Assembly: GCF_044704955.1 (NCBI RefSeq)
Contig: NC_091978.1
Coordinates: 259,656,001-259,720,000 of the forward strand
Reading direction: 5' to 3'
Source: Pristiophorus japonicus
Lineage: Eukaryota
DNA length: 64,000 nt
The translations under genes and the position numbers were made by a program. Of the stretch, positions 5,873 through 29,526 are shown in pieces. Within the stretch, counting starts at the first letter, position 1. Every line of letters starts with the position of its first letter. The notes under the pieces are model-generated. The model worked only from the letters and a program-made list of their open reading frames with translations. It ran no database searches and was not told the DNA's origin.

Positions 5873-6005
5873 CTGCAGTTATCAAATAAGCCGCAATAAT
5901 GTTATGCTCCGTCTGAGAGAAGACAGATTCGGGTTCCATTTCAGTGGAGTCTGCAGAGTAATTGAAGGTAGTATTCCCGGAGAGGTTTTCCAAAGCACCT
6001 TCCAT
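5873..6005 (-). CDS. RRH: Peropsin exon 1 (coding part)
   Basis: ATG at 6005; MEGALENLSGNTTFNYSADSTEMEPESVFSQTEHNIIAAYLITA-G, where SVFSQTEHNI is characteristic of RRH; GT donor at 5872, phase 1 matches exon 2. Confidence 0.94.
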
Positions 6006-6699: not shown

Positions 6700-7315
6700 A
6701 ATATATAGGATATGGCACAGAAACAGGCCATTCAGCCCAACCAGCATTTATGCTCCACTCGAGCCTCCTCCCATCCTTCATCTAATTTTATCAGCATAAC
6801 CCTCTATTCCCTTCTCCCTCATATGCTTACCTAGCTGCCCCTTAAATGCATTTATACTATTCACCTCAACCACTCCCTGTGGTAGCGAGTTCCACATTCT
6901 CACCATTCTCTGGGTAAAAAAGTTTCTTCTGAATTCCATTTGATTTCTTATGACTATCTTATATTGATGGCCTCTAGTTTTGCATCTCCCCAGAAGTGGA
7001 AACATTCTCTCCCTGTCTACTCAAACAAAACCTTTCATAATATTAAATATCTCGTTTAGGTCACCCCCTCAGCCGTATCTTTTTAAGAGCAAAGAACCCC
7101 AGCCTGTTCATCCTTTACCAATAGGTATAACCTTGCATTTCTGGTATCATCCTTGTAAATCTTTTTTGCACCATTTCCAGTGCCTCTATTTCCTTTTTTA
7201 TAATATAGCAACCAGAACCGTACACATTACTTCAAGTGTGGTTTAACCAAGGTTTGGTACAAGTTTAGCATAACTTCTCTACATTTCAATTCAATCCCTC
7301 TAGAAATAAACCCTA
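6700..7315 (-). mobile_element. CR1 3' fragment
   Basis: TRGHQYK...RRNFFTQRMVRMWNSLP C-terminal ORF2 motif. Confidence 0.8.
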
Positions 7316-8110
7316 TTACAGGATTTATTGGTACCACAAGGATTGCATGCGGCATTGTTTTTTAATCTGGAGGATAGCAGAGGCACTATTACACATATTT
7401 AATAATTTGTCAGTGCAAGGTATAGTGCAAGAGGACTGGAGGATAGAACATAAGAAATAGGAGCAGGTGTAAGCCATACTGCCCCTCGAGCCAGCACCGC
7501 CATTTAATACAATCATGGCTGATCTGATCATGAACTCAGGTCCACTTCTCTGCCCACTCCCCATAACCCCTTAATCTCTTATCGGTTAAGAAACTGTCTA
7601 TCTCTGTCTTAAATTTACTCAATGTCCCGGCTTCCACAGCTCTCTGAGGCAGCGAATTCCACAGATTTACAACCCTCAGAGAAGAAATTCTTCCTCATCT
7701 CAGTTTTAAATGGGCAGCCCATTATTCTAAGATTGTGCCCCCTAGTTCTAGTCTCACCTATCAGTGGAAATATCTTCTCTGCATCCCCTCAATCTTATAC
7801 GTTTCGATAAGATCACCTCTCATTCTTCTGAATTCCAATGAGTAGAGGCCCAACCTCCTCAACCTTTCCTCATAAGTCAACCTCCTCATCTCCAGAATGA
7901 ACCTAGTGAACTTTCTCTGAACTGCCTTCAAAGCAAGTATATCCTTTTGTAAATATGGAAACCAAAACTGTACGCAGTATTCCAGGTGTGGCCTCACCAA
8001 TACGCTGTATAATATAGCAAGACTTCCCTGCTTTTATACTCCATCCCCTTTCCAATAAAGGCCAAGATTCCATTGGCCTTCCTGATCATTTGCTGTACCT
8101 GCATACTAAC

Positions 8111-8369
8111 TGTAAAGTCCTGACCCTGCAGTACAGACTTACACGAGGCACATGCTGAAGTCAAGGTCACTCTGGACCTGCACCTTTATTTCACAGCTCT
8201 CGAGTGCCTGAGACCTGCCTTTATATACCTGTGTGGAACAGGTATGCAGTGTCTCCTTCAAGTGCACCTCTGGTGGTAAAGTATGCTTGTGGTTACAGGT
8301 CATATCTAGTTACAGTCATGTATAGCATGGTAAGATACAGTTATATACAGTAGTGTGAGATACATGACA
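8111..8369 (-). mobile_element. Solo LTR
   Basis: TG...CA termini, exact 5-bp TSD CTAAC (8106-8110 and 8370-8374), AATAAA on the minus strand. Confidence 0.85.
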
Positions 8370-10369
8370 CTAACCTTTTGTGTTTCATGCACAAGTACCC
8401 CCAGGTCCCGCTGTACTGCAGTATATTGCAATTTCTCTCCATTTAAATAATAACTTGCTCTTTGATTTTTTCTGCAAGTGTGCATGACTTCACACTTTCC
8501 AACATTACACTCCCACTGCCAAATTTTTGCCCACCCACTTAGCCTGTCTATGTCCTTTTGCAGATTTTGTGTGCCTCCTCACACATTGCTTTTCCTCCCA
8601 TCTTTGTATTGTCAGCAAACTTGGCTACGTTACATTTGGTCCTTTCTTCCAAGTCATTAATATAGATTGTAAATAGTTGGAGTCCCAGCACTGATCCCTG
8701 CGGCACCCCATTCGTTACTGATTGCCAGCCCGAGAATGAACCATTTATCCCAACTTCTTTTTTCTGTTAGTTAGCCAATCCTCTATCCATACTAATAGTA
8801 CCCCCAACCCCGTGAACTATTATCTTGTGCAGTAACCTTTTATGTGGCACCTTGTCAAATGCCTTCTGGAAGACCAAATACACCACATCCACTGGTTTCC
8901 CTTTATCCATCCTCAAAGAATTCCAGCAAATTTGTCAAACTTGATTTCCTCTTCATAAATCCATGCTGACTCTGCCTGACTGAATTATGCTTTTTCAAAT
9001 GTCCTGCTACTGCTTCTTTAATAATGAACTCCAACATTTTCCCAACCACAGATGTTAGGCTAACTGGTCTATGGTTTCCTGCTTTTTATCTATCTCCTTT
9101 TTTAAATAGGGACATTTGCAGTTTTCCCAATCTGCTGGGATCTCCCCAAAATCCAGGGAATTTTGGTAAATTACAACCAATGCATCCACTATCCCTGCAG
9201 TTACTTCTCTTAAGACCCTAGGATGCAAACCATCAGGTCCAGGGGATTTATCTGCCTTTAGTCCCATTATCTTACTGAGTACCACCTCCTTAGTGATTGT
9301 GATTGTGTTAAGTTCCTCCCCCCGCTATAGTCCCTTGACTATCCACTGTTGGAATATTGTTAGTGTCCTCTATCGTAAAGACTGATACAAAATATTTGTT
9401 CAGAGTTTCTGCCATCTCCATGTTCCCCATTACTAGTTCCCCGGTCTTGTCCTCTAAGGGACCAACATTTACTTTAGCCACTCTTTTCCTTTTTATATAC
9501 CTATAGAAACTCTTGCTATCTGTTTTTATATTTTGTGCTAGTTTACTTTCATAGTCTATCTTCTCTTTCTAAGTCATTTTTTTAATCGTTCTTTGCTGGC
9601 TTTTAAAAGCTTCCCAGTCTTCTGTCCTCCCACTAGTTTTGAACACTTTGTATGCCCTTGTTTTTAATTGGATACCGTCCTTTATTTCTTTAGTTAGCCA
9701 CGGATGGCTATCTTTTTTTCTCTTACACCCTTTCCTCCTCACTGTAATATATTTTTCTTGAGAATTGTGAAATATTTCCATAAATGAACCTTCCTACACT
9801 TCAATCTGTTTTCCCAGTCCACTTTACCCAACTCTGCACTCATACCTTCATAGTCTCCTTTATCTAAGCTTAGTATGCTGGTTTGAGATCCAACTTTCTC
9901 ACCCGCCATCTGAATTTGAAATTCAACCATGCTATGATCACTTATTCCAAGGGGCTCCTTTACTAGGAGATTGTGTATTAATCCTGTCTCATTACACAGG
10001 ACCAGATCCACGATAGCCTGCCCCCGGTTGGTTCCGTTACATACCGCAAGTTCAGCAGTCGGGAGGTGCGTCGCTGAGGCGTGAGTCCGGGGTCGGCGAG
10101 AGACCTATAAAGGCCGCGAGTTCAGCAGTCGGGAGGTGCGTCGCTGAGGCATGAGTCCAGGGTCGGCGAGAGGCCTATAAAGGCCCAGCTTATGCAGCTA
10201 CAGGGAGAAGGCAAAAAAGAAGTAGAAAGAAACAGAAAGGTGACGTCACAGCCAAGGGGGTAAGTGATTGGCTGGTGATTGGTGAGTAGTTTTTCTTTTT
10301 TCTCTTCCATAACAGTGAGTACACTTTAGCATTGTTTTTGCCAATTTAAGTGTATCTAAGGGTTAAGTC

Positions 10370-11317
10370 ATGGCACGAGAGCTCGGTCACGTGATATGCT
10401 CCTCCTGTACCATGTGGGAACTCACGGACACTTCCGGTGTCCCTGACGACTACGTGTGCGGGAAGTGTATCCGCCTCCAGCTCCTGACGGTCCGCGTTGC
10501 GGAATTGGAGCTGAGGGTGGATTCACTCTGGAGCATCCACGATGCTGAGAATGACGTGAGTAGCACGTGTAGCGAGTTGGTCTTACCACAGGTGAAGGGT
10601 CCACAGCCAGATAGGGAATGGAAGACCAGCAGGAAGAGCAGTGCAAAGAAGGCAGTGCAGGGGTCCTCTGCGGTCATCCCCCTGCAAAACAGATACACTG
10701 CTTTGAGTACTGTTGAGGGGGATGACTCATCAGGGGAGGGCAGCAGCAGCCAAGTTCATGGCACCATGGCTGGCTCTGCTGCACAGGAGGGCAGGAAAAA
10801 GAGTGGGAGAGCGATAGTGATAGGGGATTCAATTGTAAGGGGAATAGATAGGCGTTTCTGCGTCCGCAACCGAGACTCCAGGATGGTATGTTGCCTCCCT
10901 GGTGCAAGGGTCAAGGATGTCTCTGAGCGGGTGCAGGACATTCTGAAAAGGGAGGGTGAACAGCCAGTTGTTGTGGTGCACATTGGTACCAACGATATAG
11001 GTAAAAAAAGGGATGAGGTCCTACGAGACCAATTTAAGGAGCTAGGAGCTAAATTAAAACGTAGGACCTCAAAAGTAGTAATCTCGGGATTGCTACCAGT
11101 GCCACGTGCTAGTCAGAGTAGGAATCGCAGTATAGCTCAGATGAATACATGGCTTGAGCAGTGGTGCAGCAGGGAGGGATTTAAATTCCTGGGGCATTGG
11201 AACCGTTTCTGGGGGAGGTGGGACCAGTACAAACCGGATGGTTTGCACCTGGGCAAGACCGGAACCAATGTCCAAGGGGGAGTGTTTGCTAGTGCTGTTG
11301 GGGAGGAGTTAAACTAA
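10370..11317 (+). CDS. CR1 ORF1p: zinc finger/leucine zipper plus SGNH esterase, intact 315 aa
   Basis: CxxC...CxxC, IVIGDSIVR, HIGTND and DGLH motifs. Confidence 0.9.
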   Translation: MARELGHVICSSCTMWELTDTSGVPDDYVCGKCIRLQLLTVRVAELELRVDSLWSIHDAENDVSSTCSELVLPQVKGPQPDREWKTSRKSSAKKAVQGSSAVIPLQNRYTALSTVEGDDSSGEGSSSQVHGTMAGSAAQEGRKKSGRAIVIGDSIVRGIDRRFCVRNRDSRMVCCLPGARVKDVSERVQDILKREGEQPVVVVHIGTNDIGKKRDEVLRDQFKELGAKLKRRTSKVVISGLLPVPRASQSRNRSIAQMNTWLEQWCSREGFKFLGHWNRFWGRWDQYKPDGLHLGKTGTNVQGGVFASAVGEELN

Positions 11318-11729
11318 TATGGCAGGGGGATGGGAACCAATGCAGGGAGACAGAGGGAAACAAAATGGAGACAGAATCAAAAGACAGAAAGGAGATGAGT
11401 AAAAGTGGAGGGCAGAGAAACCCAAGGCAAAAAACAAAAAGGGCCACTGTACAGCAAAATTCTAAAGGGTCAAAGTGTAATAAAAAGGCAAGCATGAAAG
11501 CTCGGTGCCTCAATGCAAGGAGTATTCGGAACCCAGGAGAGGGCTCTGAGCTAGTTTGAGTGGGTGAGAGCTCAGATGAACAGGACCCCAAGAAAGAATG
11601 CAAAAGGCAGGAGGCAACAGAGCAGAGTAGCACTGGGGTAAGTGTAAACCACAAGGTCATAGGAAGGGACAATATGTATGAATATAAAGAGGCTGCAGGA
11701 GGGGTCAAAACTAAAAATCATGGTTTAAA

Positions 11730-14464
11730 ACACTCTACCTAAACACACGCAGCATTCAAAGTAAAGTAAATGAGTTGACGGCACAAATCATTACAAATGG
11801 GTATGATTTGGTGGCCATTACAGAAACGTGGTTGCAGGGTGCCCAAGACTGGGAATTAAACATACAGGGGTATCTGACGATTCGGAAAGATAGGCAAGAA
11901 GGGAAAGGAGGTGGGGTAGCTCTGTTAATAAAGGATGATATCAGGGCAGTTGTGAGAGATGCTATTGGCTCTAATGAACAAATGAATCATTGTGGGTGGA
12001 GATTAGAGATAGTAAGGGGAAAAAGTTACTGGTGGGCGTAGTTTATAGGCCCCCAAATAATAACTTCATGGTGGGGCGGACAATAATCAAGGGAATAATG
12101 AAGGCATGTGAAAAAGGAACGACAGTAATCATGGGGGATTTTAACCTACATATTGATTGGTCAAATCAAATCGCACGGGGTAGCCTTGAGGAGGAATTCA
12201 TAGAATGCATACAGGATTGTTCCTTAGAACAGTATGTTACAGAACCTACAAGGGAGCAAGCTATCTTAGATCTGGTTCTGTGTAATGAGACAGGAATAAT
12301 AAACGATCTCCTTGTAAAAGATCCTCTCGGAATGAGTGATCACTGTATGGTTGAATTTGTAATACAGGTTGAGGGTGAGGAAGTAGTGTCTCAAACGAGC
12401 GTACTATGCTTAAACAAAGGAGACTACAGTGGGATGAGGGCAGAGTTGGCTAAAGTAGACTGGGAACACAGACTAAATGGTGGCACAATTGAGGAACAGT
12501 GGAGGACTTTTAAGGAGCTCTTTCATAGTGCTCAACAAAAATATATTCCAGTGAAAAAGAAGGGCGGTAAGAGAAGGGATAACCAGCCGTGGATAACCAA
12601 GGAAACAAAGGAGAGTATCAAATTAAAAACCAATGCGTATAAGATGGCCAAGGTTAGTGGGAAACTAGAAGATTGGGAAAATTTTAAACGACAGCAAAGA
12701 ATGACTAAGAAAGCAATAAAAAAAGAAAAGATAGATTCCGAAAGTAAACTTGCGCAAAACATAAAAACAGATAGTAAAAGCTTTTACCGATATATAAACG
12801 GAAAAGAGTGACTAAAGTAAATGTTGGTCCCTTAGAAGATGAGAAGGGGGATTTAATAATGGGAAACGTGGAAATGGCTGAGACCTTAAACAATTATTTT
12901 GCTTCGGTCTTCACAGTGGAAGACACAAAAACTATGCCAGACATTGCTGGTCACGGGACTGTGGGAAGGGAGGACCTTGAGATAATCACTATCACTAGGG
13001 GGGTAGTGCTGGACAGGCTAATGGGACTCAAGATAGACAAGTCCCCTGGTCCTGATGAAATGCATCCTAGGGTATTAAAAGAGATGGCGGAAGTTATAGC
13101 AGATGCATTCGTTATAATCTACCAAAATTCTTTGGACTCTGGGGAGGTACCAGCGGATTGGAAAGCAGCTAATGTAACGCCTCTGTTTAAAAAAGGGGGC
13201 AGACAAAAGACAGGTAACTATAGGCCGGTGAGTTTAACATCTGTAGTGGGGAAAATGCTTGAAGCTATCATTAAGGAAGAAATAGTGGGACATCTAGATA
13301 GGAATAGTGCAATCAAGCAGACGCAACATGGATTCATGAAGGGGAAATCATGTTTAATTAATTTACTGGAATTCTTTGAGGATATAACGAGCATGGTGGA
13401 TAGAGGTGTACCAATGGATGTGGTGTATTTAGATTTGCAAAAGGCATTCGATAAGGTGCCACACAAAAGGTTACTGCAGAAGATGAAGGTACGCGGAGTC
13501 AGAGGAAATGTATTAGCATGGATCAAGAATTGGCTGGCTAACAAAAAGCAGAGAGTCGGGATAAATGTGTCCTTTTCGGGTTGGAAATCAGTGGTTAGTG
13601 GTGTGCCACAGGGATCGGTGCTGGGACCACAACTGTTTACAATATACATAGATGACCTGGAGGAGGGGACAGAGTGTATGTAACAAAATTTGCAGATGAC
13701 ACAAAAATTAGTGGGAAAGCGGGTTGTGTAGAGGACACAAAGAGGCTGCAAAGAGATTTAGATAGGTTAAGCGAATGGGCTAAGGTTTGGCAGATGGAAT
13801 ACAATGTCGGAAAATGTGAGGTTATCCACCTTGGAAAAAAAACAGTACAAGGGAATATTATTTGAATGGGGAGAAATTACAACATGCTGCGGTGCAGAGG
13901 GACCTGGGGGTCCTTGTGCATGAAACCCAAAAAGTTAGTTTGCAGGTGCAGCAGGTAATCAGGAAGGCGAATGGAATGTTGGCCTTCATTGCGAGAGGGA
14001 TGGAGTACAAAAGCAGGGAGGTTCTGCTGCAACTGTACAGGATATTGGTGAGGCCACACCTGGAGTACTGCGTGCAGTTTTGGCCACCTTACTTAAGGAA
14101 GGATATACTAGCTTTGGAGGGGGTACAGAGACGATTCACTAGGCTGATTCCAGAGATGAGGGGGTTACCTTATGATGATAGATTGAGTAGACTGGGTCTT
14201 TACTCTTTGGAGTTCAGAAGGATGAGGGGTGATCTTATCGAAACATTTAAAATAATGAAAGGGATAGACAAGATAAAGGCAGAGAGGTTGTTTCCACTGG
14301 TCGGGGAGACTAGAACTCGGGGGCACAGCCTCAAAATACGGGGGAGCCAATTTAAAACCGAGTTGAGAAGGAATTTCTTCTCCCAGAGGGTTGTGAATCT
14401 GTGGAATACTCTGCCCAAGGAAGCAGTTGAGGCTAGCTCATTGAATGTATTCAAATCACAGTAG
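11730..14464 (+). pseudogene. CR1 ORF2 (endonuclease and reverse transcriptase), frameshifted
   Basis: [24 protein letters not shown] and FADDTK motifs spread over several frames. Confidence 0.9.
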
Positions 14465-16096
14465 ATAGATTTTTAACCAATCAGGGAATTAAGGGTTACG
14501 GCGAGCGGGCGGGTAAGTGGAGCTGAGTCCACGGCCAGATCAGTCATGATCTTGTTGAATGGCGGAGCAGGCTCAAGGGGCTAGATGGCCTACTCCTGTT
14601 CCTAATTCTTATGTTCTTATGTTCTATACTGCTCAAGGAACCCGTCCCTTATGCACTCTATGAACTCTTAAAGGCTACCCAGACAAATTGGATTTGTCCA
14701 ATCAATATGGAGATTAAAATCACCCATGATTGTTGCTGTACCCTTTTTACAAGCCCCCACTATTTCCTGGTTTATACTCCGACCAACAGAGTTGCTACTG
14801 TTAGGGGGCCTATATACTGCACCCACCAGTGACTTTTTCACCTTTTTAGTCCTTATCTCCACCCAAATTGTTTCAACATCCTGATCATTTGAGCCAATAT
14901 CGTTTCTCACTATTGCAGTGATTCCATCCTTTATCAATAAAGCTACCCCAGCTCCTTTTCCTTTCTGTCTGTCCTTCCAGATTGTCAAATACCCCTGAAT
15001 ATTTAATTCCCAGTCCTGGTCACCTTGCAACCTCGTCTCTGTAATTGCTATTAGATCATACCCATTTGTATCTATTTGTGCCGTCAACTCATCTATTTTG
15101 TTATGAATGCTACGTGCATTTAGAAAAAGTGTCTTTAAATTTGGGGCTAGACTTTCCACTTCACATTGCTGGAACATCACCCATATATCGCCCAAAAGGG
15201 CCTGCTATCGCCCATTTTGACCAAAAAGTGGAAATTCAGGCTGGAACATCGCCGGGAAATTATCCCCCCAACTTTCGGCTCACATTGCCGAGCTGAGCGC
15301 TGAAGTGATTGCCCGCACATCGCCCAGTGCAACTTGCGGCACATCGCCGGACTGATCGCTCGCCGAGAACATCACTGGAGAATAGTTGCTTTTCTTGGCC
15401 CTTCCTCACAGAACTGGGCACTACAGATGCCATTTTGAATTTCGGAGGAAGGGAGTCGGCAGCTAAAAAACTCGAGCTAATAAATTGAGAGTTATTTAAG
15501 GGTCTTTTACAGATAGATCCACTCACATTTATACATATTTAATTATACTGATATTAGCTTCATAGATTAGGCATTTTTTTAACTAAAAAGTGCATTTATA
15601 GCAAGTGAAAATAATATTATTGATAGTGATGGGGCCTATGGCTTCTCTGCCATTACTCGTAACTGCTCACACGCTGGCTTCTGAAAGGATCAATCGAAGA
15701 AGTGGCAGAGTAATGCGGAGACAGAGGAGACGAACGTACAGCCAACGAAGGTACAAAGAAAAGCAATCTTCCTAAACTTGTCTGAAAATGCATGTCTTAG
15801 GAGGCTGTGCTTCCAGAAGGAGGTCATCAATGAGATATGCCAGCTCATGAAGGGGGATCTGCAGCCTTCCAGCACCATCAGAATCGCTCTGCCCGTTGAG
15901 GTAAAGGTTACTGCGGCACTATCCTTCTATGCATCTGAATGATTTCAAGCTTCAGCTGGCAACATCTGTGGTATATCGCAGGATGAACTTTAAAAACTTC
16001 TCTATGACCAGGGAGGCACAGACCGGGAGGGCTTTGGGTTTTTCGAGAATAGCAAACTTCCCCAAGGTGCAGGGAGCAATAGATTGCACGCACATC

Positions 16097-17478
16097 GTCT
16101 GTCAGCTTGCCGTCCTGACCAGAGCAGTTTTGAGTCGCTCCCATTCCCTGATTCTCGGCCTTGGATTTATTAATCAGGGTGTGATAAAGTGCAGCAGACA
16201 ACTGTTTTGTACAAAGAAGGTTCGGGTTTTATTCAAGAAAATAAATAGCACAAATACACTCCAATAAAACTGTAAAATCTTACAAAAAAAAGGTTCTAAA
16301 CAATGGGGAATAATTTATTACAGGTAATAAACACAACAGAAATACCTACCACCTCCCACTTACTCTCTAACTAGGTCAAACTAGGGCTCCAGGGATTTAT
16401 GCTCACCAGATCCTTCCTTTGACAGCTAGGGCTGTTTCGCAGTTTGGGGATTCTTTGGTTATAGCCAGTTTGCCTTGCCGTACCCCGGACGTGGTAGAAG
16501 ATCTCTGCTGCGTATTGAAGCCAGTTGGGGTGAGTCCGCTGATGTGGTTAGACGCGTTTTGGATTTATCTCTGGTGAGTACCCAATTCTCTTTGTTATCA
16601 CTAGGGTTTTAAGTTCTTTAGGTAATTTTTACCCGCTGGATAGTCTAGGCACAGATTGTAGTGTGGAAAACTTGCGTGGACCCCGGTTTTCTTGGTGGTT
16701 GATTTTCCTGGTTGGTTTTGTTGGTTGCGATGGTCCAGTTGATGGCTGTTACCAAGTCAGTTGGTATTGATGTTCCACTGATTGGTTTTTGAACTTTTTT
16801 CTGATGTCGCGATGTTTCTTCCTGTGTTTTCTCACTGTGTGCTCTCGATCTTGATCTTGTCGTTCCAAAGTAATGGTCAGAATAGTTCTTTTGGTACGAT
16901 AGGCCCTCAGTTATACTCTGAGAGGCTGCTTAATCTTCACGTTTCTTTTGTTTAAGTTTTGACGGGCTAGCTAACTGAAACTTGATTAAATGTTTTAATC
17001 TGGCGTGGATAGACTTTGGGATCGCGGTACTCCTTATTTATGAGCTGATGGGCTCTTGTCCATTGTAGTAGCACTGCTTTGGCTTCGGGAAGACTGGGCT
17101 GAGTCAGATATTTCTATGCATGTTGAAAAGGTGTTGGAATATTTGGGTCCTGTAGGCGGGGTGGATAATGTTTCTTCCGTGGTCGATTGTTTAAATACTA
17201 ATGTTTTCTGGGAGCCTGACTATGGTTAAACAGCTCCCCCAGACAAACTGATTAGCTACAATATCTAAATTCTAAAGGTAAAGGTTGATCCCACAGTCTC
17301 TGCAGCTTTTCCTCACAGCCCCAAACATGCCTTTTAAAATCCCAAACTTGATTAAGACTCGTAGATTTCTTCCATATGCATTTTAGGATCCTAAATCTTC
17401 TGTTTAATAGGCCCAATCGAATTTCCTTTTCAGTGAGTCCAAACACTGGGGAGTTTCCATGAATTTTGGAATCTTACA
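16097..17478 (-). repeat. 3' LTR (last ~15 bp deleted)
   Basis: Starts TGTAAGATT after purine tract AAATGGGGGGAC; direct repeat of 23014-24268; two AATAAA near its end. Confidence 0.88.
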
Positions 17479-17832
17479 GTCCCCCATTTAACACTCTTCG
17501 CCACAGACTGTCATCTTAAGTGAAAACCTTCCTTGATATATACCTAGCTAAACCCAAACGTACATTCCCCTTTGAAATGTATTGCTACTTACAGGTAAAT
17601 TCAGTCATTCCAATTACATTACAGCATAGAGGGGGTCCAACGCCCCTCCATTACTCCAGTTTCATAAAAAATACACAGTAAAATACACATAGTACAAACT
17701 TTGTACAACACTTGACCTCTGCGCTTTTCTAGCAGGTGGAATCTAAACCGGACCTCACCATGTGACTGTGATTTTATTGCAGCGTTCTATCATATTTTGT
17801 GTTTTCCTCCCTGATACAATCCTTAAGTTCAG

Positions 17833-20124
17833 CTAGGGCTCGTCCAGCAACCTCTGGTGCTGGGATCGACGACCTCTGCCCCTCACCCTGCAGGTAGTAC
17901 ACCATAAATAAAGAATAATCACGAGCTGGCAGATAACTAAAACGTGGGAAGCTATTCTGATCCAGGGAGGGACCTTTATATTTCTGACAATATTCCACCA
18001 GGGTGGAACGGTGATATCCGAAATTTCGCCCCCTATCTCAACTGTTTTTTGCTCTAGACTATAGAAATGTTTCTTTGATACTTCTACAGCTTTCAGTAGG
18101 GCGGTTAAATGTTTAGGTTTCATATCCAAAGTGTGCAACGTAATCTTATAAATTTGTGAAATTGTTATTTACAGTGAGGCGACTAGTGGAAGGTTCAGGA
18201 ATGGGAACAATCCATTCTTGGGCCACTTGAACTTCCGCCTCGGGTTTAAAACAAAAACTGCTTTCACTCACCGGACACCAAATGTGTTGTCCATGTTGGT
18301 AGTGGGGCGCACTTGTGGTGACACAATATGTCCCACCTCCTATATATACTACCTGTGGAGGAACATGGTCTTATGCCTTTACCTCCATGGTACAGTTGAT
18401 AGGCTGTGCGCCAGCAGCTTTAAACCCACATTGTGGTCTGGAGTAGGTGTTCAAGTGCTGGGGGCACAGTATTATGTGTGCGCCCAGGCTCCGGCACCCG
18501 GAGAGGTCAGTACCCGTCATCGTGTGCTCCCACTTTATAACATAGGGTGGGACCACAGTGAAATGAACATATGCACCTCCTTGAATGATCTCAATATTCT
18601 CCACCCTCTATACCAGCGCGGGTCGGGCTGCCCAACCCATAACCAGCATCCTTACAACTATGGTATGGTTGGACCGCCCACAATCTACTGGGATAGGGTA
18701 GGCTTCAGAAGCTAGACGGAGCTGACACGGACTCAACAAATTGCTATACGGATGGAGGGTTGCGAGGTGCTTGTTGCTGATCCAAGCGGGGACTTGGCCT
18801 TGCTTTAGATCTTCTAGGTTGCTGCGGCCCTCGCCCAGCAACCATGCCCCATATAGCACACACACCTTATTCCTCGCAGCCTGATCTGAGGCATTCCTAT
18901 CCTCCCGTATAAGTGCATTTACTGTTTTTCCGTGTCTTTCCAACTCAGCAATAATCTCTTCTAAATGGACCATCATAGCCTGGTCCTCGTGTAGCTCTGA
19001 GCCTACCACAGTGTTCTCTTCCCTTCGGATTTTCCGTAGTTGGTTTTTTAGACCATTTATTTGCATTTACAGTTCCATATCGTCTGTGCTATTTATCACA
19101 GAGGATCCTGTATTATATGCAGTGAAAATATCATTACAGGTTCCCCTCCTTTGTCTTCCTGTGCCCATAGTGCTCCCAGCGTATATTGTGTATAAATCCT
19201 CTTTGTCTACGTTGGCAAAATATAATTCGTAAAATTTCCTGAACATTTCTCTGAGTAGGGCCTGGTAGAGCTGCTCTGTCTCCTTCGGGCACCATGCAGG
19301 TAAGTGTACTTCTGTAAGGTTTAAGATGACTGAAGCTACTGCATAGTGTACCCCCACCCCCGGTATAATACCTTTTCGGTTGGTACTAACACTAACCCAT
19401 TACCTGGTCCCTTGGTGGTGGAAGGACACCTCTCTATCACTATCCGTACTGTCGGGGTCGTGGGCAGGGGCTTTCTGGTGCACGAGTTCTGTGGCGTTGA
19501 CTGGGATCGGGGGATATGCTTCCAAGCTCTGATTCCAGCCCATCCCCTCCCTGTCATCCTGCCAGTGCCTCGCAAACACAATGGATATGCCTGCGGGACA
19601 AACCCTCTCTGACCCCCACATGCATACATAGATCCCCTGTTCAGACTCCCACCACTTATCCCAATACACACTCACTCCCCCCTGGGTCCCCGTGATCGTC
19701 TGGTAGGTGTCATTCCCCAGTCGTTCCCAGTCGGCTCTATGGTCCCCCGTGTCCTTGCTCAGCTTCCTGAGCCACCACCACCTATCCAGAGGAATCTGCC
19801 CCTTACATGTCAAACACACTCGTTTCTCCTCAGTGACACTGACCCATGCTGCAACGACCGGTACCCTGGGGCATGGGATGGAGGCCTCCCCGTAGGTGAG
19901 CCCGGACTGGCTGGAGTATCGGGTAGATTTGGAACCCAGCCATCCTGGCCAAATCCCCTCGTGGAAGTAGGCGGCGACTTCCTCCACACTGGTGTACCAC
20001 CTCCAGCAGTAACAGTGGGTACTCTTCCTCCTGAGTACCCAAAGATACGAGATTCCTCGATGTCACCTCTGTGACCCGCATTCGCCCCCATTAGGGCGAG
20101 CAGAAGCAAGGCCCCTCTCATCAT
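17833..20124 (-). pseudogene. Envelope/fusion glycoprotein (about 760 codons, with stops and frameshifts)
   Basis: Signal peptide MMRGALLLLALMGANA; ORFs 19400-19987, 19067-19357, 18608-19066 and 18371-18604 share one frame; RQRR site; heptads; Cys-rich region; TM IASHVLVICQLVIILYLW. Confidence 0.82.
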
Positions 20125-20881
20125 TCGGTTCCTTCACTGTAGGGACACAAAATAGATAGCCTTGCTCTTGAGAAAAACAGTTCTCTGGCTTGGCAAAGGT
20201 GATCCAGTTCTACAATCTTAAACTTACTTCTACAAATAACACAAATTCTAAAACTGAAACTACCAAAAATCTTAAAACACACTTAAATCAGAAATTCTAT
20301 GTACATCCTCCACCAGTCTCTGGGCGGCCAGGCTAATTCCTGTTCGGCCTCTGCCTTGTGCGGCCTCTGGGTGTAAGGTGGCCTGTACCTTAGAACTCGG
20401 AGAGTTCTTTCCATGGTAGCTGGGGCCTTTCCCGAGTCCCAGATGATCAGGGAATAACCCCCCCTGTGCCCCCTTCTATGTAGCTGCTGAGTCTATGTCC
20501 TGCCCTGTGGGTTCCGCGCAGCCTGAGGCCGCAGGCTGGGGACCCTTGTCGTTCTCTTGGCCCACCGCTACCTCTCCTCACCGTTGAAGGCTGCAGGCTG
20601 GGGATCCCTATCCCTAGAATGATCCTTGATCTTGGGCATTCTTTTTCGGGCTGAACCACTGAAACTGGGGTGCTGGTGACCATGGTGTCTTTGGCCCTGG
20701 TGTACGGGGAGTCCTTCTTAGGGCTCCGGCTACTGGAGGTGCGTCCAAGTCCCAAACAATTGGTGGGATAGCCCCTCCAGTAATACAATTCACTGCCCCC
20801 ATCTGTACGGTCTGTGAGCCTGCAGCGTCCCCTGTGGGCCTTCCACAGTCGGAGGCTGCTGGCTGAGGATCCCTGTCCTAA

Positions 20882-21074
20882 AACCCCACTAAGCTGTATG
20901 GGACTCCGTTAGACAGAGGTGAGGTGGCGGGGTTATCTGCATAGACGAGAGTGCTTGATGCTCTGGTATCCAGCAGATAAGTCCCCTTCACCTTCTCCAC
21001 CTCCAGCTGAACACCCGGTCTCTTCCATGTATCCTACTCAGGGGACACAGGTAGAGAGGCTGCGCCGGTTCTAG
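20882..21074 (-). pseudogene. Retroviral aspartic protease N-terminal half
   Basis: RPGVQLEVEKVKGTYLLDTRASSTLVY (decayed DTG motif); homology ends abruptly at about 20882. Confidence 0.7.
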
Positions 21075-22996
21075 TCATTGGTCAGTGTTGGATGGGGTGG
21101 ATGGGGTTTCCCTCCCGATAGCCGTAGCTACCTTCCCTGGGCCACCCAATACAGACCAGAGCGCGGCTACGATCTCCTCGAAGAAAGAGGGAGAGTTCTG
21201 CGCTCCGGGTCCGGCCTTTTGGGCAGGTGCTGGGGGTTCCTTAGCTATGTTATCCTTCCAAGGGTTCCTACAATCCTTTCTCCAATGCCCACGTTTCCCA
21301 CACCCAAAGCAGTTACGCTTGGTATTGGAAGAGATACCCCCTTCCTGGTGCCATTCCCACTTTGCTTGGTGGGGCTTTAACTCATGTACCCCCCCCCCCT
21401 TGGGTGGGTTCTCCTCCGTCCCTCGGCTATTCCTAAAACATAGAAACATAAACATAGAAACATAAAGCCAGGGTTAGTTGCCTAACCAGGGTCTCCTCGA
21501 TAGCCTGGGGGTCTCTGGAGTCAAACCAGAGCTCTGCTTTGGCCTTTATCCTTGGAAGGCTGTTTGCCACCAGGATACAGAGCCAGCGAACCCACTGGTC
21601 TCCGACGATGTTATCCCGATTTAAGCTCCCACTACAGGCGCTCTGGAAGACAGGCCACAGCCTGTCTGTGAATGCCTGCGGGATCTCTACTGCAAGATGC
21701 AGTGGCCTCTCCACTCGGGAAAACGGGCTGCCATCGTTGAGACCCATAGCCTTCAGGATTTCTTCCTGGATGGCCGTAAATGTACTTTGCCCCCTCTTGG
21801 TGTTTGTGGAGAGGGACTGGTACAATCTGCTGTCGATGGAAAACAATAGCATTTTGGCCATTTTGGCGTCATTGTAACCGTTTATCCCCCTCACCTGTTC
21901 CACCTCCATGAAGTAGACCGAGGGGTCCCCTTTGTGAGTGAGCTTACCCAGGTGGCTTACCATAGCCCTAAGCTGTTGGGTGCCATGGGGAACCACGAAG
22001 TGACCTTCAAGGGGCCACTGGCCCCCACCACTGTCGGGCGGGCCAAACCTTTGCTGCCGGATCGGGCACATTGGCCCCAATCCCGGCCCTTCTCGCATTG
22101 GCTCGCCCACCTCTCCCTGCTGCCAAACCGAGCTAAAACCCAGCACCACAGGTGGTGATGGTCCGCAATCCCTGCCCGCCTCACAAATCATTCGCCCTTC
22201 CTGCTGCCGAACCAGGTCCAACCCCGGCGCCACAGGTAGTGGTCGAAAGTCTCTCCCCGCTCGTCCCTCCTGCTTTCCAACCGGGTCATTCCCCGGCGCC
22301 ACAGGTGGCAATTGAACGGTTTTCCCTGCTCTTCCAGGTCCACCTGGGCTTATTAGGCATACCGTGCCTTTAGCCTTGGACAGAGCAAGGTTCAGACTAT
22401 TTAATTGTTGCTGGCAGGGGGTGTGGTCTCCCGACTCAAACCCCCTAGTGCTTGCTACTGTGTAAGCTGCCTGGACGTCTCTCAATCTCTCCTCCTGCTC
22501 TTTACTTATCTTGGTGAGGTGGGCGTTTTCTCCCCGCAACACCAGTTCTTGACCCTTCGCTTCGGTGACCTGGCACTGAAGGTAATCCTGGCGGTTTCTA
22601 TGTGTTTCCACTAACTATAGTTTTCCTTGCTTTGGCTTGCCTAACTCCTTAAATAATCTCTTCCCCCATGATAGCTCTGGCACTCGAGCATTCCTCGGAC
22701 TCCCTGAGGTCTGACTCCAGCGACTCGACTTTCTTGTCCAATTGCTGGACCTGACATTGTAGGCAGACTAACCATATTGCTTTCTCCACAGAGCGCTTAT
22801 GGTCCTTACTCTCAGTCCATTTGGCTGCAGCGTCCACAGGACGCTTAGTGCGCAATAGGTTCAGTACCCATTTCTTTGTTATATTGACTTTCTTGAATAT
22901 GTAAGAGGAAATCCTCTCTTCCATTTTGCTTCTTTCTTCAAAAACAGTGTCTACTGCATCACACCCTTTTGACCAAGCTCCTGGCTGGCTCGCCAT
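21075..22996 (-). pseudogene. gag (coiled coil, capsid-like region, CCHC knuckle)
   Basis: CFGCGKRGHWRKDC zinc knuckle; three successive minus-strand ORFs between PBS and protease. Confidence 0.85.
22978..22995 (-). promoter_or_regulatory. Primer-binding site, tRNA-Arg(ACG)
   Basis: TGGCGAGCCAGCCAGGAG is complementary to the 3' 18 nt of vertebrate tRNA-Arg(ACG); lies 3 nt after the LTR end ...CCTACA. Confidence 0.88.
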
Positions 22997-22998
22997 TC

Positions 22999-24268
22999 TG
23001 TAGGGGGTGGTGGGTCTGTCAGCTTGCCTTCCTAGCCAGAGCGGTTTTGAGTCGCTCCCACTCCCTGATTCTCGACCTTGGATTTATTAATCAGGATGTG
23101 ATAAAATGCAGCAGACAACTGTTTTGTACAAAGAAGGTTTGGGTTTTATTCAAGAAAACAAATAGCACAAATACACTCCAATAAAACTGTAAAATCTTAC
23201 AAAAAAAGGTTTGCCTTGCCGTACCCCAGACGTGGTAGAAGACTTCTGCTGCATATTGAAGCCAGTTGGGGTGAGTCCGCTGATGCAGTTAGACGCGTTT
23301 TGGATTTATCTCTGGTGAGTACCCAATTTTCTTTGTTATCAATAGGGTTTTAAGTTCTTTAGGTAATTTTTACCCGCTGGATAGTCTAGGCACAGATTGT
23401 AGAGTGGACCCCAGTTTTCTTGGTGGTTGATTTTCCTGGTTGGTTTCATTGGTTGCGGTGGTCCGGTTGATGGCTGTTACCAAGTCAGTTGGTATTGATG
23501 TTCCACTGATTGGTTTTTGAAGTTTTTTTTTCCGATGACGCGATGTTTCTTCCTGTATTTTCTCACGGTGTGCTCTCGATCTTGATCTTATCGTTCCGAA
23601 GTGATGGTCAGAATAGTTCTTTTGGTACGATAGGCCCTCAGTTATACTCTCAGAGGCTGCTTAATCTTCATGCCAAATCTAACATTTCTTTTGTTTAAGT
23701 TTTGCTGCCCATTGATTTTAAGTGGTCTTCTTTGTTTAAGTTTTGACGGGCTAGCTAACTGAAACTTGATTAAATGTTTTAATCTGGCGTTGATAGATTT
23801 TGAGATCATGGTACTCCTTATTTATGAGCTGATGGGCTCTTGTCCATTGTAATAGCACTGCTTTGGCTTCGGGAAGACTGGGCTGAGCCAGATATTTCTA
23901 TGCATGTTGAAAAGGTGCTGGAATATTTGGGTCCTGTGGGTGGAGTGGATAATGTTTCTTCCATGGTCGATTGTTTAAATGCTAATGTTTTCTGGGAGCC
24001 TGACTATGGTTATACAGCTCCCCCAGACAAACTGATTAGCTACAATATCCAAATTCTAAAAGTAAAAGTTGATCCCACCCCTCTGTCTCTGCAGCTTTTC
24101 CCCAAAGCCCCAAACATGCCTTTTAAAATCCCAAACTTGATTAAAACTCATAGATTTCTTCCATATGCATTTTAGGATCCCAAACTTGCTGTTTAATAGG
24201 CCCAAATCGAATTTTCTTTTCAGTGAGTCCAAACACTGGGGGGTTTCCACGAATTTTGGAATCTTAAA
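22999..24268 (-). repeat. 5' LTR
   Basis: Direct repeat of 16097-17478 with indels; ends in CA next to the PBS; initial TG mutated to TT. Confidence 0.88.
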
Positions 24269-25339
24269 CCCTTTAAAGAATCCAGAGGTGTTTTGTAACA
24301 GAAAGGGCTTCCACTCCCTGAATGTGCAGCTCTTTGTCGACCACAACCAAATAATCATGAAAGTAAATGCTACATTTACAGGCAGCATCCATGATGCGCA
24401 CATCCTGCGTGGGAGTGCTATCTCGGATCTGTTTGTCAATCAGCCAGAAGGTCACGGTTGGATGCTGGGGGATAAAGGATATGGCCTTGCCAGCTGGCTG
24501 ATGACCCCATTGCATAATCCCGTTACTGAAGCCGAGAAGTGTTACAACGAAAGCCACATAGCAACATGCAACATCGTCGAAAAGACAATTGGAGTCCTAA
24601 AGCAGCGCTTCAGATGTCTGGACCACTCTGGTGGCAGCCTACAGTACCATCCTGACCAGGTCACTGAGTTTATTGTGGTGTGTTGCATGTTGCATAATCT
24701 ATCTATAAGGAGAGGACAACAATTGCCAGATGGGGCTGCTGGTCCACCTCCAGAAGGAGTGGAGGTGGAAGAGGCAGATGGCGAGAAGCAGGAGGAGGAG
24801 GTGGCTAGTGAGGACCTTGGGGAGTACAATCAGCCTGCTGATAAAGCCATGGTCCCTCAACCACAACCGCCCCCAACCACCCAGAAGACTGGAGAAACCC
24901 CATGGGAGTTACGCAGCTTCAAAGCTGTTGTGCCAGCACCTCATAAATGAACACTTTGCATGAACTTACATTGGGGACAGTCACAGTTACAGCTACAGTT
25001 ACGGTTAGACAAAAGTTGCATTTGCGTTGAGTTACGTTTTAGCCTTGCCTGCTGTGCCCTGGCCTGGCATTGTTGTACAAAAGTTGTATTAATGCTTAAT
25101 TTATATTATAAGACAATGCACAATAATTGTTAAATTCCATAAAAAATGTATTACTTTAACAAGAATTTTATTGTAATTTTTAACCCACCCCAACTATAAA
25201 CAAACATTAACAGTAACAGAATTATTAAGGTAACAAAACAATAAAAAAACAATTTTAGCAAAAACATCCCCCTTCCCTACCTGGACCTGCGGCCATGTTT
25301 CCCTCCAGATCCTTTCCCCCCCCCCCCCGTATCTTAAGC

Positions 25340-28241
25340 TCATCCGCCCAGTTTTCTCCCCAGAGACCGAAACGAAGTTGGCCTGCAGTGGGCAACGGAA
25401 AGACTTCCTGCTGTGGTGGGGTGTTGGAGTGGAAGATGAAGCTGTCGGATCATCTTCTGAGTCAGGAGGAAGTGGTTCCTCCGTACTCGCTTGAGTGCTC
25501 GGGGTGATACTCCGATGTAACACGACACCTTGGGGTGCAGCGCAGTGTATGACAGAATCGTACCAAGTCAGCATGGATTTATGAAAGGGAAATCATGCTT
25601 GACGAATCTTCTGGAATTTTTTGAGGATGTAACTAGCAGAGTGGACAAGGGAGAACCAGTGGATGTGGTGTATTTGGACTTTCAAAAGGCTTTTGACAAG
25701 GTCCCACACAAGAGATTAGTGTGCAAAATCAAAGCACATGGTATTGGGGGTAATGTATTGACGTGGATAGAGAACTGGTTGGCAGACAGGAAGCAGAGAG
25801 TCGGGATAAACGGGTCCTTTTCAGAATGGCAGGCAATGACTAGTGGAGTGCCGCAGGGCTCAGTGCTGGGACCCCAGCTCTTTACAATGTACATTAACGA
25901 TTGAGATGAAGGAATAGAGTATAATATCTCCAAGTTTGTGGATGACACTAAACTGGGTGGTGGTGTGAGCTGTGAGGAGGAAGCCAAGAGGCTGCAGGGT
26001 GACTTGGGATAGGTTAGGTGAGTGGGAAAATACATGGCAGATGCAGTATAATATGGATAAATGTGAGGTTTTCCATTTTGGAGGCAAAAACACGAAGGCA
26101 GAATATTATCTGAATGGCGGCAGACTAGGAAAAGGTGAGGTGCAACAAGACCTGGGTGTCACTGAAAGTGGGCACGCAGATACAGCAGGCGGTAAAGAAG
26201 GCAAATGGTATGTTGGCCTTCATAGCTAGGGGATTTGAATATAGAAGCAGGGAGGTCTTAATGCAGCTGTACAGGGCCTTAGTGAGGCCTCACCTTGAAT
26301 ATTGTGTTCAGTTTTGGTCTCCTAGTGTGAGGAAGGACATTCTTGCTATTGAGGGAGTGCAGCGAAGGTTCACCAGACTGATTCCAGGGATGGCTGGGCT
26401 GTCATATGAGGAGAGACTGGATCAACTGGGCCTTTATTCACTGGAGTTTAGAAGGATGAGAGGGGATCTCATAGAAACATATAAGATTCTGATGGGACTG
26501 GACAGGATCGATGCGGGAAGAATGTTCCCGATGTTGGGGAAGTTCAGAACCATGGGACATAGTCTTAGGATAAGGGGTAGACCATTTAGGACTGAGATGA
26601 GGAGAAACTTCTTCACTCAGAGAGTTGTTAACCTGTGGAATTCCCTGCCGCAGAGAGTTGTTGATGCCAGTTCACTGGATATATTCAAGAGGGAGTTAGA
26701 TATGGCCCTTACGGTTAAGGGATCAAGAGGTACGGAGAGAAAGCAGGAAAGGGGTACTGAAGGAATGATCAGCCATGATCTTATTGAATGGCGGTGCAGG
26801 CTCGAAGGGCCGAATGGCTTACTCCTGCACCTATTTTCTATGTTTCTAAGTTTCTATGTTCAGCCAACAGCGCCCATGCCACAGGGCCTTGGTAGCGACG
26901 GTCTGCTCACGCATCTCTTCCAGTGTGTGCCATACTACTTCCAGTAGCTCGGCTTGCACAGCAGACACCCGTAAACTGAGTAAAACCCTGGAGAAGCTCG
27001 CGACCGTCTCCGAGCACAGGGAGATCAAGCCCTCTAACTGATCGACCATGGGAGGCGATTGCAGACCTCGCTGATCCGCCCTCCGTGGGACCGGCATGCG
27101 CAATGTGCCTTGGCGTTGCCGGATGCACGCCGCTTGGTCCCAGTGCCTCTACCGTTGTTGCTGCTCCTCCTCCTTCTCTGGTTCATTGGTGGTGGTGTCG
27201 TTCTCCTCCTCCTCCTCACCAGGTGCAAGTGGCACCTCCATTTGCGTCTCAGGTTGACCTTAAAAGCACATTTGAGCTTATTACAGAGCTTATTAGAACA
27301 TAAGGGTACACATTACAAGAGACGTTACATATTAATACATGGATTTCACTGCCCCAGAAAGCTGAAGCCGCTGCATCCCCTGCTCTTATTGCTTCTTATG
27401 CACAAAGACTGCATGCATGGCATGACATGACATCATTCGTATATTGCATTATAATTACAGGGTGTTACATTACTTTTTAAAACTGTTTGACACATTACTC
27501 ACGAGGCGCATAGCTGGCTCCACAAGACCGCAGGTGGTGGTCGAACGGCATTCATGGCCCACCAGCGCGGCTGCAGGCTCCTCGAGATCAGCAAGGGTTT
27601 GCAGCTGAGCAGTGCCGCCTCCGGTGCACCTCTGCTCACTGCGGTTGCTAGATATCTTCTTTTGCAAACGGGAAATGAGCATCGCATAAGCTAATTGACT
27701 AGGTAGTATCATGGAAACACAACAGTTTAAAATGTTACATGCAATTCGGATCATGCACGGTTGAAACAAAGCTCAGCATGTTTGGGAGCTACAGCTTGAC
27801 ACATATACATCTCTCTATACTGCAGCAGCCAGAGACTTAAAAAGGGCACGGGTTCATAGCCTTGTTCATACACTAGCAGGGAATATGTATATATGTACGC
27901 ATGTATGTATGCATGCATTTATGTATGTAAATAATTTACAACAATTAATTAAATTATTAAAATATAAAACCTGTACTTACTCTTGCTCATGATACCAGGC
28001 TGTTCCAGCGTTTGTGGCACTGGTCAGGCCCCCTCGCCTCATGGAACGCTGAAGAGATGACGTCAGCTATTTGAGCCAAAACTTTTCTGTAAACCCGGGT
28101 GGAAGTTTTCCACTGCCACCCTGGGTTAATTCAGCCCACCTTTTTTGGACCTCTTGTACGAGGGCCTCATTAATTTCTTCGGGAAAGGGCTTTGCCCTCT
28201 TCCGATCACCCTCCACATATTCAACGGAAGAAATCTCATTA
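25340..28241 (-). pseudogene. Harbinger Myb/SANT-like DNA-binding protein gene, spliced and decayed
   Basis: RAKPFPEEINEALVQEV...DQCHKRWNSL then a GTAAGT donor at 27980; next exon KKISSNRSEQRCTGGG; interrupted by a CR1. Confidence 0.75.
25549..26860 (+). mobile_element. 5'-truncated CR1 inside the Harbinger
   Basis: [14 protein letters not shown] through to a (TTTCTATG)n tail. Confidence 0.9.
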
Positions 28242-29526
28242 TAATTATTTAAATAGGAGATTAAATAGTATTATTCTCTCGATCTCAGCTTACTCCTCTC
28301 CTCTCTCTCTCCCCCAACAGCCTTCTGCGCATATGTGGATGAACCCTGACCTCCCAAAACGTGGGAAAACCGATCACCAAAAAAAAAAAATCGCATGCGC
28401 AGAAGGCCTTTGCTAGGGAAGCTTTTGCCTTCCACATCGCTGGCCGTTCGCTGGGCCCACATTACATCGCTGACCTTTTGCATTGCCCATTTCACATCGC
28501 CGATCGCCAAGTGGAAAATCATGACCCAAAAAGTGGGCAATGTTCCAGCGATCGGTAAGGCTGAGACATCAACCATCACTGGAACATTGCCCATTTTTTT
28601 GGGCGATAGCGAGCAAAGTGGAAAGTCGAGCCCTTGGTTGTTTACCCTGTTTTCCTGCTTGTTTCTTCTCTCCTTCAAATTCACTTTTTTTATTTTTCCT
28701 TTCTAATTCCAGCTTTACTCCTCTCCCTACTGAATCTATTTTCAGGTTTCCATCCCCCTGCCACGCTAGTTTAAACCCTTCCCAACAGCACTAGCAAACC
28801 CCCCACCCCGCGAGGATACTGGTCCCGGCTCTGTTGAGGTGCAACCCGTCCGGCTTGTATAGGTCCCATCTCCCCCAGAAGCGGTCCCAATGCCTCAGGA
28901 AACTAAAGCCCTCCCGCCTGCACCATCTCTCCAGCCATGTATGCACCTGCTTTATCCTCCTATTTCTGTACTCAGTAGCTCTTGGCACCGGGAATAATCC
29001 CGAGATTACTACCATTGAGGTCCTGCTTTTTAATCTCTCTCCCAGCTCCCTAAACTCTGCCTGGAGGACCTCATCTCTTTTTCTACCTATGTCATTGGTC
29101 CCGCAATGGACCACGATCTCTGGCTGTTCACCCTCTCCCCCCAGAATTCCCTGCAGCCGCTCAGTGACATCCTTGACCCTGCCACCAGGGAAGCAACATG
29201 CTATCCTGCAGTCACGTCTGCGGCCACAGAAACGCCTGTCTGCTCCCCTGACTATTGAATCCTCTACCGCTATAGTTCTTCCATTCTTCTTCTTCCCCTC
29301 CTGTTCAGCTGAGCCACATGTGGTGCTGTGGATTTGGCTCTGGCTGCACTGCCCAGAGCCACCATAGCCCTTACCGGTACACAGAACAGAGTACCGGTTA
29401 GAGAGTGAGATGGACTCAGGGGACTCCTGCACTACCTGCCTAATCCTCCTCTTCTGTCCGGCGGTCACCCAATCCCGATCTACCTGCACATTCTTAAGCT
29501 GCGGGGTGACCGCCTCAAGAAACGTG

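Follow-up and report, generated by a model that had tools for sequence, protein, structure and literature searches.

The 64,000 nucleotides of Pristiophorus japonicus DNA analysed here (NCBI RefSeq assembly GCF_044704955.1, contig NC_091978.1, positions 259,656,001 to 259,720,000; hereafter the window) carry on their minus strand a provirus of 8.2 kb with the order LTR-gag-(pol deleted)-env-LTR (LTR, long terminal repeat), the env gene of which is our main subject (Table 1). Compared with an unbroken relative this env has four frameshifts, near 19990, 19480, 19340 and 18120, and three in-frame stops, at 19069, 18610 and 18373, with a further stop at 19402 that sits in a frame-shifted stretch; the window copy is a dead element. 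These lesions, the pol deletion and a probable immunoglobulin (Ig)-like domain at about 19850-19620 go beyond an earlier description of the gene from its letters alone (the sequence-only reading). We consider it probable that the window holds the broken env of a pol-deleted provirus from an abundant family of endogenous retroviruses (ERVs), likely related to snakehead retrovirus (SnRV), whose Env is predicted to have a core of the type found in paramyxovirus fusion (F) proteins and likely bears an Ig-like head.

Table 1. Features of the provirus and of its insertion site (window positions; TM, transmembrane; PBS, primer-binding site; RT, reverse transcriptase; IN, integrase).
Feature	Position	Strand	Remarks
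env	17833..20124	minus	broken; leader, Ig-like domain, Pro-rich hinge, F-like core, TM, short basic tail
Probable Ig-like domain	19619..19846	minus	V.V.EG..V.L.C ... W ... G.Y.C pattern
Furin-type site RQRR	19145..19156	minus	motif
Fusion-peptide-like segment and heptad repeat A (HRA)	18872..19144	minus	long helix 363-424 in sister model
Cys-rich beta region, resembling F domains I/II	18180..18871	minus	model pLDDT mostly 70-93; structural alignments
Heptad repeat B (HRB), WW motif, TM helix	17902..18111	minus	TM about 17955-17902
5' LTR	22999..24266	minus	about 1.27 kb; end ...CCCCCTACA as in other copies; outer terminal TG missing or mutated
PBS, tRNA-Arg(ACG), 18 nt	22978..22995	minus	complementary to genomic tRNA-Arg(ACG)
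gag	21075..22996	minus	N-terminal coiled coil, capsid-like region, one CCHC knuckle
Protease start	20881..21074	minus	pol cut off near 20880 by a deletion that removes RT, tether, RNase H and most of IN
Decayed 3' end of pol/IN, then spacer leading to env	20125..20880	minus	tblastn to sister Pol residues 1294-1348
Polypurine-tract-like site before 3' LTR	17479..17491	minus	
3' LTR	16097..17478	minus	outer 15 bp missing; no target-site duplication left at window copy
Host site: right part of Harbinger/HARBI1-like transposase	24267..24950	plus	DDE_Tnp_4 E 1.7e-32

All the elements that the sequence-only reading had listed for env are present on the minus strand: the leader (a Met at 20124 and a hydrophobic stretch, recognized by eye and not with a signal-peptide predictor), the RQRR site and the peptide that follows it, the heptads, the Cys-rich segment, the WW motif and the TM, with the stop codon of the gene at 17833. 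In HRA and HRB the a and d positions are hydrophobic in 73-86% of cases versus 12-31% for the other positions, taking the best of seven phases and with no shuffle control. The three minus-strand frames of the window env contain no CX6CC or immunosuppressive-domain (ISD)-like motif, and the two unbroken natural frames of relatives contain no CX6CC, CX7CC or ISD motif, in agreement with the absence reported earlier; judged by these motifs, the pairing of CX6CC with an immunosuppressive domain in the TM that defines a gamma-type Env is lacking from the window env. As regards trimer formation, furin cleavage and fusion, the window Env displays sequence motifs only.

The genome contains at least 40 copies of this env, since of 4643 candidates for a 1.2-kb env probe 40 were scored, and each of these was at 85-100% identity. 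A sister subfamily, whose env shares about 68% DNA identity with that of the window family, includes copies with unbroken frames and one gag/pol stop. It is younger than the family of the window copy. Seven of the nine sister LTR pairs examined are 97.9-99.8% identical, and the two LTRs of the window provirus are 94.5% identical over 1194 columns. Between the subfamilies the proportions of non-synonymous and synonymous differences in env (pN and pS) are 0.20 and 0.72, giving a dN/dS of about 0.09, near saturation, with corresponding values of 0.23 and 0.84 for the Ig region; env, including the Ig region, is under purifying selection between them. Because there are at least 40 genomic matches at 85-100% and dN/dS between subfamilies is about 0.09, the env signal lies beyond chance. 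The lineage as a whole is a large shark ERV lineage that was active until recently.

The fold of the Env core was approached through an AlphaFold2 (AF2) model based on a multiple sequence alignment of 77 rows of natural frames, with the Env ectodomain of the sister subfamily as query. The mean predicted local distance difference test score (pLDDT) is 57, and the core (residues 221-630) lies mostly at 70-93 except around the cleavage site. All 38 rows listed by Foldseek against the PDB are paramyxovirus or pneumovirus F, the top matches being F of respiratory syncytial virus (RSV), human parainfluenza virus 3 (hPIV3) and Newcastle disease virus (NDV) with E values of 1e-10 to 5e-9 (best 9e-11). 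Against BFVD the structural matches are lispivirus glycoproteins, the Envs of walleye epidermal hyperplasia virus (WEHV1, 3e-11) and walleye dermal sarcoma virus (WDSV, 5e-9), baculovirus F and paramyxovirus F. The VIA structure search, which is independent of Foldseek, gave only F or foamy virus Env chains in its top 13 rows (Z 10.8-6.9, up to 359 aligned residues), among them NDV F (Z 10.8, 359 aligned, root-mean-square deviation (rmsd) 20) and prefusion foamy Env (Z 8.2, 276 aligned, rmsd 5.8), while the orthoretroviral TM cores of gp41 and Mason-Pfizer monkey virus (MPMV) align over 80-86 helical residues only. The structure search proposed with the sequence-only reading has thus been run, with F and foamy Env and not a gamma TM as its best matches, and through the sister model it backs the F-protein-like, non-gamma architecture suggested there; an F-type (paramyxo-like) class I fusogen fold of the Env core is supported as a prediction. 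The predicted order of parts (F2-like part, furin site, fusion peptide, HRA, Cys-rich region, HRB, TM) also resembles that of paramyxovirus and pneumovirus F, from which the shark Env differs by an identity of 9-14%, about 215 added N-terminal residues, a retroviral context and the lack of a separate attachment protein.

Profile comparisons connect this core to the Envs of other retroviruses; for these and all later comparisons with published systems, we draw on the accessible portions of the sources cited. The family Env profile matches best to WDSV Env (95.6%, E 1.2e-8, 449 columns), followed by SnRV Env (84.5%, E 6.9e-6, 285 columns), with a weak match to foamy Env (43.6%) and one in the TM only to Env of murine leukaemia virus (MLV, 19.6%). 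The walleye epsilonretrovirus Envs (WDSV-like contig, 5962-9648; BFVD Q9WHI8 and A4GTG3) are matched by profile as well as by structure and appear to be F-type, whereas the walleye viruses differ from the shark family in their class I Pol (RT 32% by BLAST) and in a much longer Env of about 1225 amino acids. Epsilonretrovirus Env has been called 'distinct' and non-gamma, with no fold assigned in the part of that source available (PMC9967133), and it is neither classified nor modelled in the available parts of PMC9967133 and 10.1101/2021.11.05.467493. Foamy Env is F-like by structure (Fernandez et al., 2024, PMC11468914) and lokiretrovirus Env is likewise described as F-like (Wang and Han, 2020, PMC7947760). 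On the models and profiles, F-type Env is predicted to extend beyond foamy and lokiretroviruses to SnRV-like and epsilon viruses.

Several observations weigh against this interpretation of the core. The modelled protein is the sister Env, 63% identical to the main frame of the window, and not the window copy itself; the predicted TM-score (pTM) of the model is 0.42, residues 1-216 (the Ig region) have pLDDT below 50, and the best Foldseek rows reach TM-scores of 0.30-0.33 by query length with high rmsd. The segment after RQRR is only weakly hydrophobic, with a mean Kyte-Doolittle value of -0.05 in the window Env, 0.39 in the sister and -0.52 in SnRV. With respect to SnRV, hmmsearch with the Env profile gives E 0.71 for SnRV Env versus 1.7e-4 for WDSV, and BLASTP of the window Env against SnRV Env finds no match. 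At the sequence level neither Pfam nor the PDB returned an F family for the window Env, PDB profile searches returned coiled-coil and weak Ig matches but again no F family, single-sequence AF2 of Env reached a pLDDT of 33 only, and the whole Env had one unnamed match (0.75) in the ESM Atlas.

Of the about 215 residues that precede the F-like core, part carries an Ig pattern (B-strand Cys, C-strand Trp, F-strand G-x-Y-x-C). The ESM Atlas features of this N-terminal domain fall with Ig clusters (0.90-0.92), most of its 59 weak PDB matches are Ig domains, and a bamboo-shark homologue is named 'Ig-like' by UniRef, while an unnamed homologue has a weak V-set match. The Pfam Ig_3 matches (E 6e-5 in the sister, 0.038 in the window) point the same way and yet both lie below the curated cut-off, and Pfam Ig matches at E <=0.1 are found in 6 of the 77 alignment members. 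Judged by these patterns, an Ig-like domain ahead of the Env core is probable. The sub-threshold Pfam scores, the low pLDDT of the domain in the model, the lack of a Pfam Ig match in the N-terminus of SnRV Env and the different N-terminal domain carried by some related env families of the same genome all tell against it, and would suit an F-type core preceded by a domain that is not Ig, or by an Ig serving as shield or decoy and not as receptor binder. We rate that alternative as a real possibility that falls short of likely, in view of the four methods (Pfam, ESM features, PDB profile and UniRef name) that favour Ig, not fully independently, and of the purifying selection on the N-terminal region. 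By eye, the N-terminus of SnRV Env has an Ig-like pattern that can be aligned with the shark domain. Two further high-copy env families of the same genome, many of them stop-free, combine this core with Cys-rich N-terminal domains of other kinds, and judging from these sequences heads have apparently been swapped among the env families. Precedents for an Ig fold exist in the IgV-like receptor-binding domain (RBD) of MLV and feline leukaemia virus (FeLV), though on a gamma-type Env (10.1101/2024.03.17.585361), and in CrocERV31, where a captured nectin3 replaces env (PMC4299795), unlike the shark Ig-like domain, which would be fused to an F-type core.

If the shark Env of intact copies works as F and foamy Env do, the precursor would enter the endoplasmic reticulum through its leader, trimerise and be cut by furin at RQRR. 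The N-terminal subunit, comprising the Ig head, the Pro-rich hinge and an F2-like strand and helix, would stay tethered to the membrane subunit by a conserved Cys pair. The Ig head would bind a cell receptor, so that a single protein would serve both attachment and fusion, as foamy Env does, whereas paramyxoviruses have a separate attachment protein; this is the weakest step of the mechanism, argued from analogy, and we hold it to be evenly balanced. HRA would then refold into a long coiled coil, inserting the peptide that follows the cleavage site, and HRB would zip back so that the membranes fuse. Foamy Env itself joins an attachment domain to a fusogen with an F-type core, as proposed for the shark Env, but has a leader peptide with a TM and an RBD of novel fold inserted in its surface subunit (PMC11468914), where the shark Env would have a probable Ig at its N-terminus.

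The affinities of the virus were judged mainly from Pol, which the window copy has largely lost. RT identities are those of the sister RT over 264 amino acids, the values for the lokiretrovirus Loki-Str are hand counts against a printed supplement, and the SnRV sequence is an IMG/VR contig of 10,688 nt that matches the SnRV RT printed in PMC7947760; IMG/VR scans with the family RT and one further protein query returned no relative. The sister RT shares 50-52% identity with five of the seven named frog and coelacanth ERVs (37% and 44% for the others), 43% with SnRV (113/264), 37-38% with gamma, 32-35% with foamy and 30-33% with Gypsy RTs, and about 32% with Loki-Str (about 84/264). In RT trees of 32 rows, with class II represented by delta only and with Loki, Odin, ERV-L and XtERV-S not among the rows, an unrooted split of SnRV, frog, coelacanth and shark from foamy and class I has support values of 87/92, rising to 96/94 when four Gypsy and two delta rows are dropped; one row labelled gamma clusters with WDSV and probably represents a walleye epsilonretrovirus. 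The family has the same 18-nt tRNA-Arg PBS as SnRV (clade Huo of Xu et al., 2018, PMC6001957), and the two also have in common a coiled-coil Gag with one CCHC, an in-frame stop between gag and pol, the RT motif LPQGF and an Env core homologous by profile. They differ in the length of Env (about 770 codons with a short tail, versus 1134 in SnRV), in the LTR of about 1.3-1.4 kb, in IN (39%), in an Env homology that is invisible to BLASTP and in the 3' open reading frame (ORF), none being seen in the shark family. On these comparisons the family is likely SnRV-related with a Loki-like integrase, and we do not file it as a lokiretrovirus.

The sequence-only reading had called the element loki-like, and this holds for the integrase but finds no support in RT, in the primer site, in Gag or in the layout of Env, all of which fall on the SnRV side. 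Over 127 residues, IN has about 50% identity to Loki-Str (about 63/127, by hand count) versus 39% to SnRV and 44-51% to the frog and coelacanth ERVs, and this, too, counts against a plain SnRV affinity, as do approximately unbiased (AU) tests in which shark with foamy RT (p 0.11) and shark with class I/delta (p 0.10) both go unrejected, and an RT tree with shark beside the Gypsy outgroup that is 1.8 log-likelihood units better than the free tree. The RT-tree check proposed earlier for pol-bearing relatives therefore yields a split on the SnRV side, with AU tests that exclude no alternative and with no Loki rows. Were the element a lokiretrovirus of cartilaginous fish, or a mosaic lineage that branched early between Loki and SnRV-like viruses, this would account for the IN resemblance, for the tether and dual RNase H in pol, for a basal RT position that fits equally well, and for an F-type Env with heptads, a TM and a GP.xG motif at the start of its core as in Loki Env (PMC7947760 and its supplement); the RXKR-type cleavage site found with the F-like Env of lokiretroviruses is present in the family as well but is not exclusive to Loki. 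Against it stand the RT, which is closer to SnRV than to Loki-Str and has LPQGF where four of four Loki RTs inspected have PFGY, and the Env, since in that of Loki-Str the core follows the signal peptide with no intervening domain and the fusion peptide is strongly hydrophobic, in contrast to the Ig-like domain, hinge and weakly hydrophobic peptide of the shark family. Furthermore, the part of PMC7947760 available reports no Loki in cartilaginous fish, and the five chondrichthyan genomes in its Table S2 are without the asterisk that we take as the mark of Loki-positive genomes. We regard this alternative as improbable; strict Loki membership is unlikely, and a basal mosaic may still hold.

An endogenous foamy-like virus is a far more remote candidate. 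Foamy RTs are the best PDB sequence matches (159 bits versus 148 for MLV), foamy Env is a structural match (Z 8.3) and the pairing of shark with foamy RT survives the AU test, whereas RT identity to foamy viruses is low and the 96/94 split sets the two apart. Foamy viruses have a Gag without CCHC, a pol in a separate frame, and a leader and PBS unlike those of the shark family. The latter differs from them in RT, Gag and PBS, having a CCHC knuckle, gag and pol in a single frame separated by a stop, a leader that looks cleavable and a PBS for tRNA-Arg; by sequence, the foamy-clade RT, CCHC-free Gag and separate pol frame that mark Spumaretrovirinae are all lacking. Last, in favour of an env-carrying Gypsy element (errantivirus-like) or a host or co-opted gene, F-type Envs are widespread in invertebrate Gypsy elements (10.1101/2023.10.26.564294) and baculovirus F is among the BFVD matches. 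This rival is hardly credible: the dual RNase H and the broken reading frame already go far to refute it, the window copy is one of at least 40, and RT scores 159/148 bits to retroviral RTs versus 88 to Ty3. Errantivirus identity in particular is unlikely because family pol has a tether and a second RNase H, and ERV4 (5-bp target-site duplication, no zinc finger, no GPY/F; Chong et al., 2014) was ruled out by the 4-bp duplication, the CCHC and a GPY-like IN motif.

The likely SnRV-related family, with its predicted F-type Env, bears on the origin of retroviral env, a long-standing open question. Until now, F-type Envs were known from foamy viruses by structure and from lokiretroviruses by sequence. 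To these comes the shark family, an abundant lineage that was active recently and has relatives in frogs; its profile also connects it with SnRV and WDSV, exogenous fish retroviruses whose Envs have no assigned type in the portions of the literature examined. With an F core in four deep lineages, an F-type ancestry of retroviral Env becomes testable, and we tentatively suggest, as a scenario that could well be wrong, that F-type Env is ancestral for retroviruses and was retained in loki and foamy viruses, in the SnRV clade and in walleye epsilonretroviruses, gamma and beta types having replaced it later; the shark lineage, with SnRV-like RT and Loki-like integrase, would then be an early branch that added a host-type Ig domain to the F core and went on invading the germ lines of sharks and frogs until recent times. 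Joined to an F core, an Ig head would constitute a one-protein design for attachment and fusion comparable to foamy Env and coronavirus spike. ERV surveys with gamma- or beta-type Env queries would miss the F-type class, and an anamniote Env survey, as far as its accessible text goes, covered gamma and beta types only (10.1101/2021.11.23.469661). The window copy itself is of significance as a dead element only. The SnRV clade is widespread (PMC6001957, PMC12193657), and the literature searched, with subscription papers, Repbase and Dfam outside its scope, describes no F-like or Ig-bearing Env for SnRV-related ERVs or WDSV; nor do the available parts of PMC12440569, PMC13709493, PMC12583693, PMC11521997, 10.1101/2023.10.26.564294 and 10.1101/2024.07.05.601823 describe the shark family, which may already be catalogued in Repbase, Dfam or bioRxiv supplements.

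The remaining parts of the provirus conform to a Retroviridae-like layout (LTR-PBS-gag-pol-env-PPT-LTR, PPT being the polypurine tract) with target duplication, as observed in the family. Duplications of 4 bp flank all six sister copies with clean ends among the nine pairs examined, and of three window-family pairs one is exact and one has a mismatch. In family copies pol encodes RVT_1 and integrase together with two RNase H-like domains, one of the tether type and one further RNase H, with RT_RNaseH and RNase_H both matching; family copies possess the tether plus second RNase H of Retroviridae-like elements, and both are deleted from the window copy. Family RT is found within 10 kb in 11 of 39 other copies, and the deletion junction of the window copy recurs in 5 of the 39. 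Because the 5' flanks of four such junction-sharing copies differ from one another and from the window, the pol-less form has probably been copied in trans by pol-bearing relatives. In gag, where Pfam was also run on sister and SnRV Gag, the knuckle matches zf-CCHC (E 6e-4), and the window gene has frameshifts near 22660 and 21460 and ends in a single TGA, with protease next in the same frame. The first gag-frame ATG (window 22996, minus) overlaps the start of the PBS in both the window and the sister subfamily, leaving almost no 5' leader; the second Met lies about 24 codons downstream. The PBS varies both within subfamilies and between them, and one of the sister variants matches genomic tRNA-Arg(CCG).

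Homologues of the env are found in other cartilaginous fish and in frogs. A profile search gave 38 proteins, and of the nine env matches looked up six are from sharks, two from frogs and one is unnamed; one frog match is a cluster of 16 Mantella proteins, and skate homologues were also found. The chondrichthyan origin proposed in the sequence-only reading fits these named shark and skate homologues. The 16 clustered proteins of Mantella aurantiaca, mostly of 677 amino acids, suggest that a related ERV has recently undergone a burst in this frog. Public gene models join pieces of the family env to a zinc-finger protein, a Niban-like protein or a frog Pol, which are likely annotation artefacts. 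Further env families, 25-45% identical, reside in the P. japonicus genome, and another one (about 30.167-30.170 Mb) includes an unbroken env of 786 codons, 42-45% identical to a bamboo-shark protein, the other listed matches being broken or partial (86-92% DNA identity) and the upstream pol an IN fragment only; this is a candidate co-opted env.

At the insertion site the provirus splits a Harbinger/HARBI1-like transposase into 15685-16096 and 24267-24950 (plus strand), with reading frame on both flanks. Elsewhere in the window, CR1/L2-like long interspersed nuclear element fragments with SGNH-esterase-like ORF1 remnants, labelled by eye, lie on both strands at 7400-15140, 25500-29450 and 57000-64000. 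An unrelated integrase fragment at 58958-59392 (minus), 42% identical to sister Pol, probably belongs to a Gypsy-type element, and a long tandem repeat of purines only, with a 23-bp period (AT skew 1.0), extends from 44600 to 49000.

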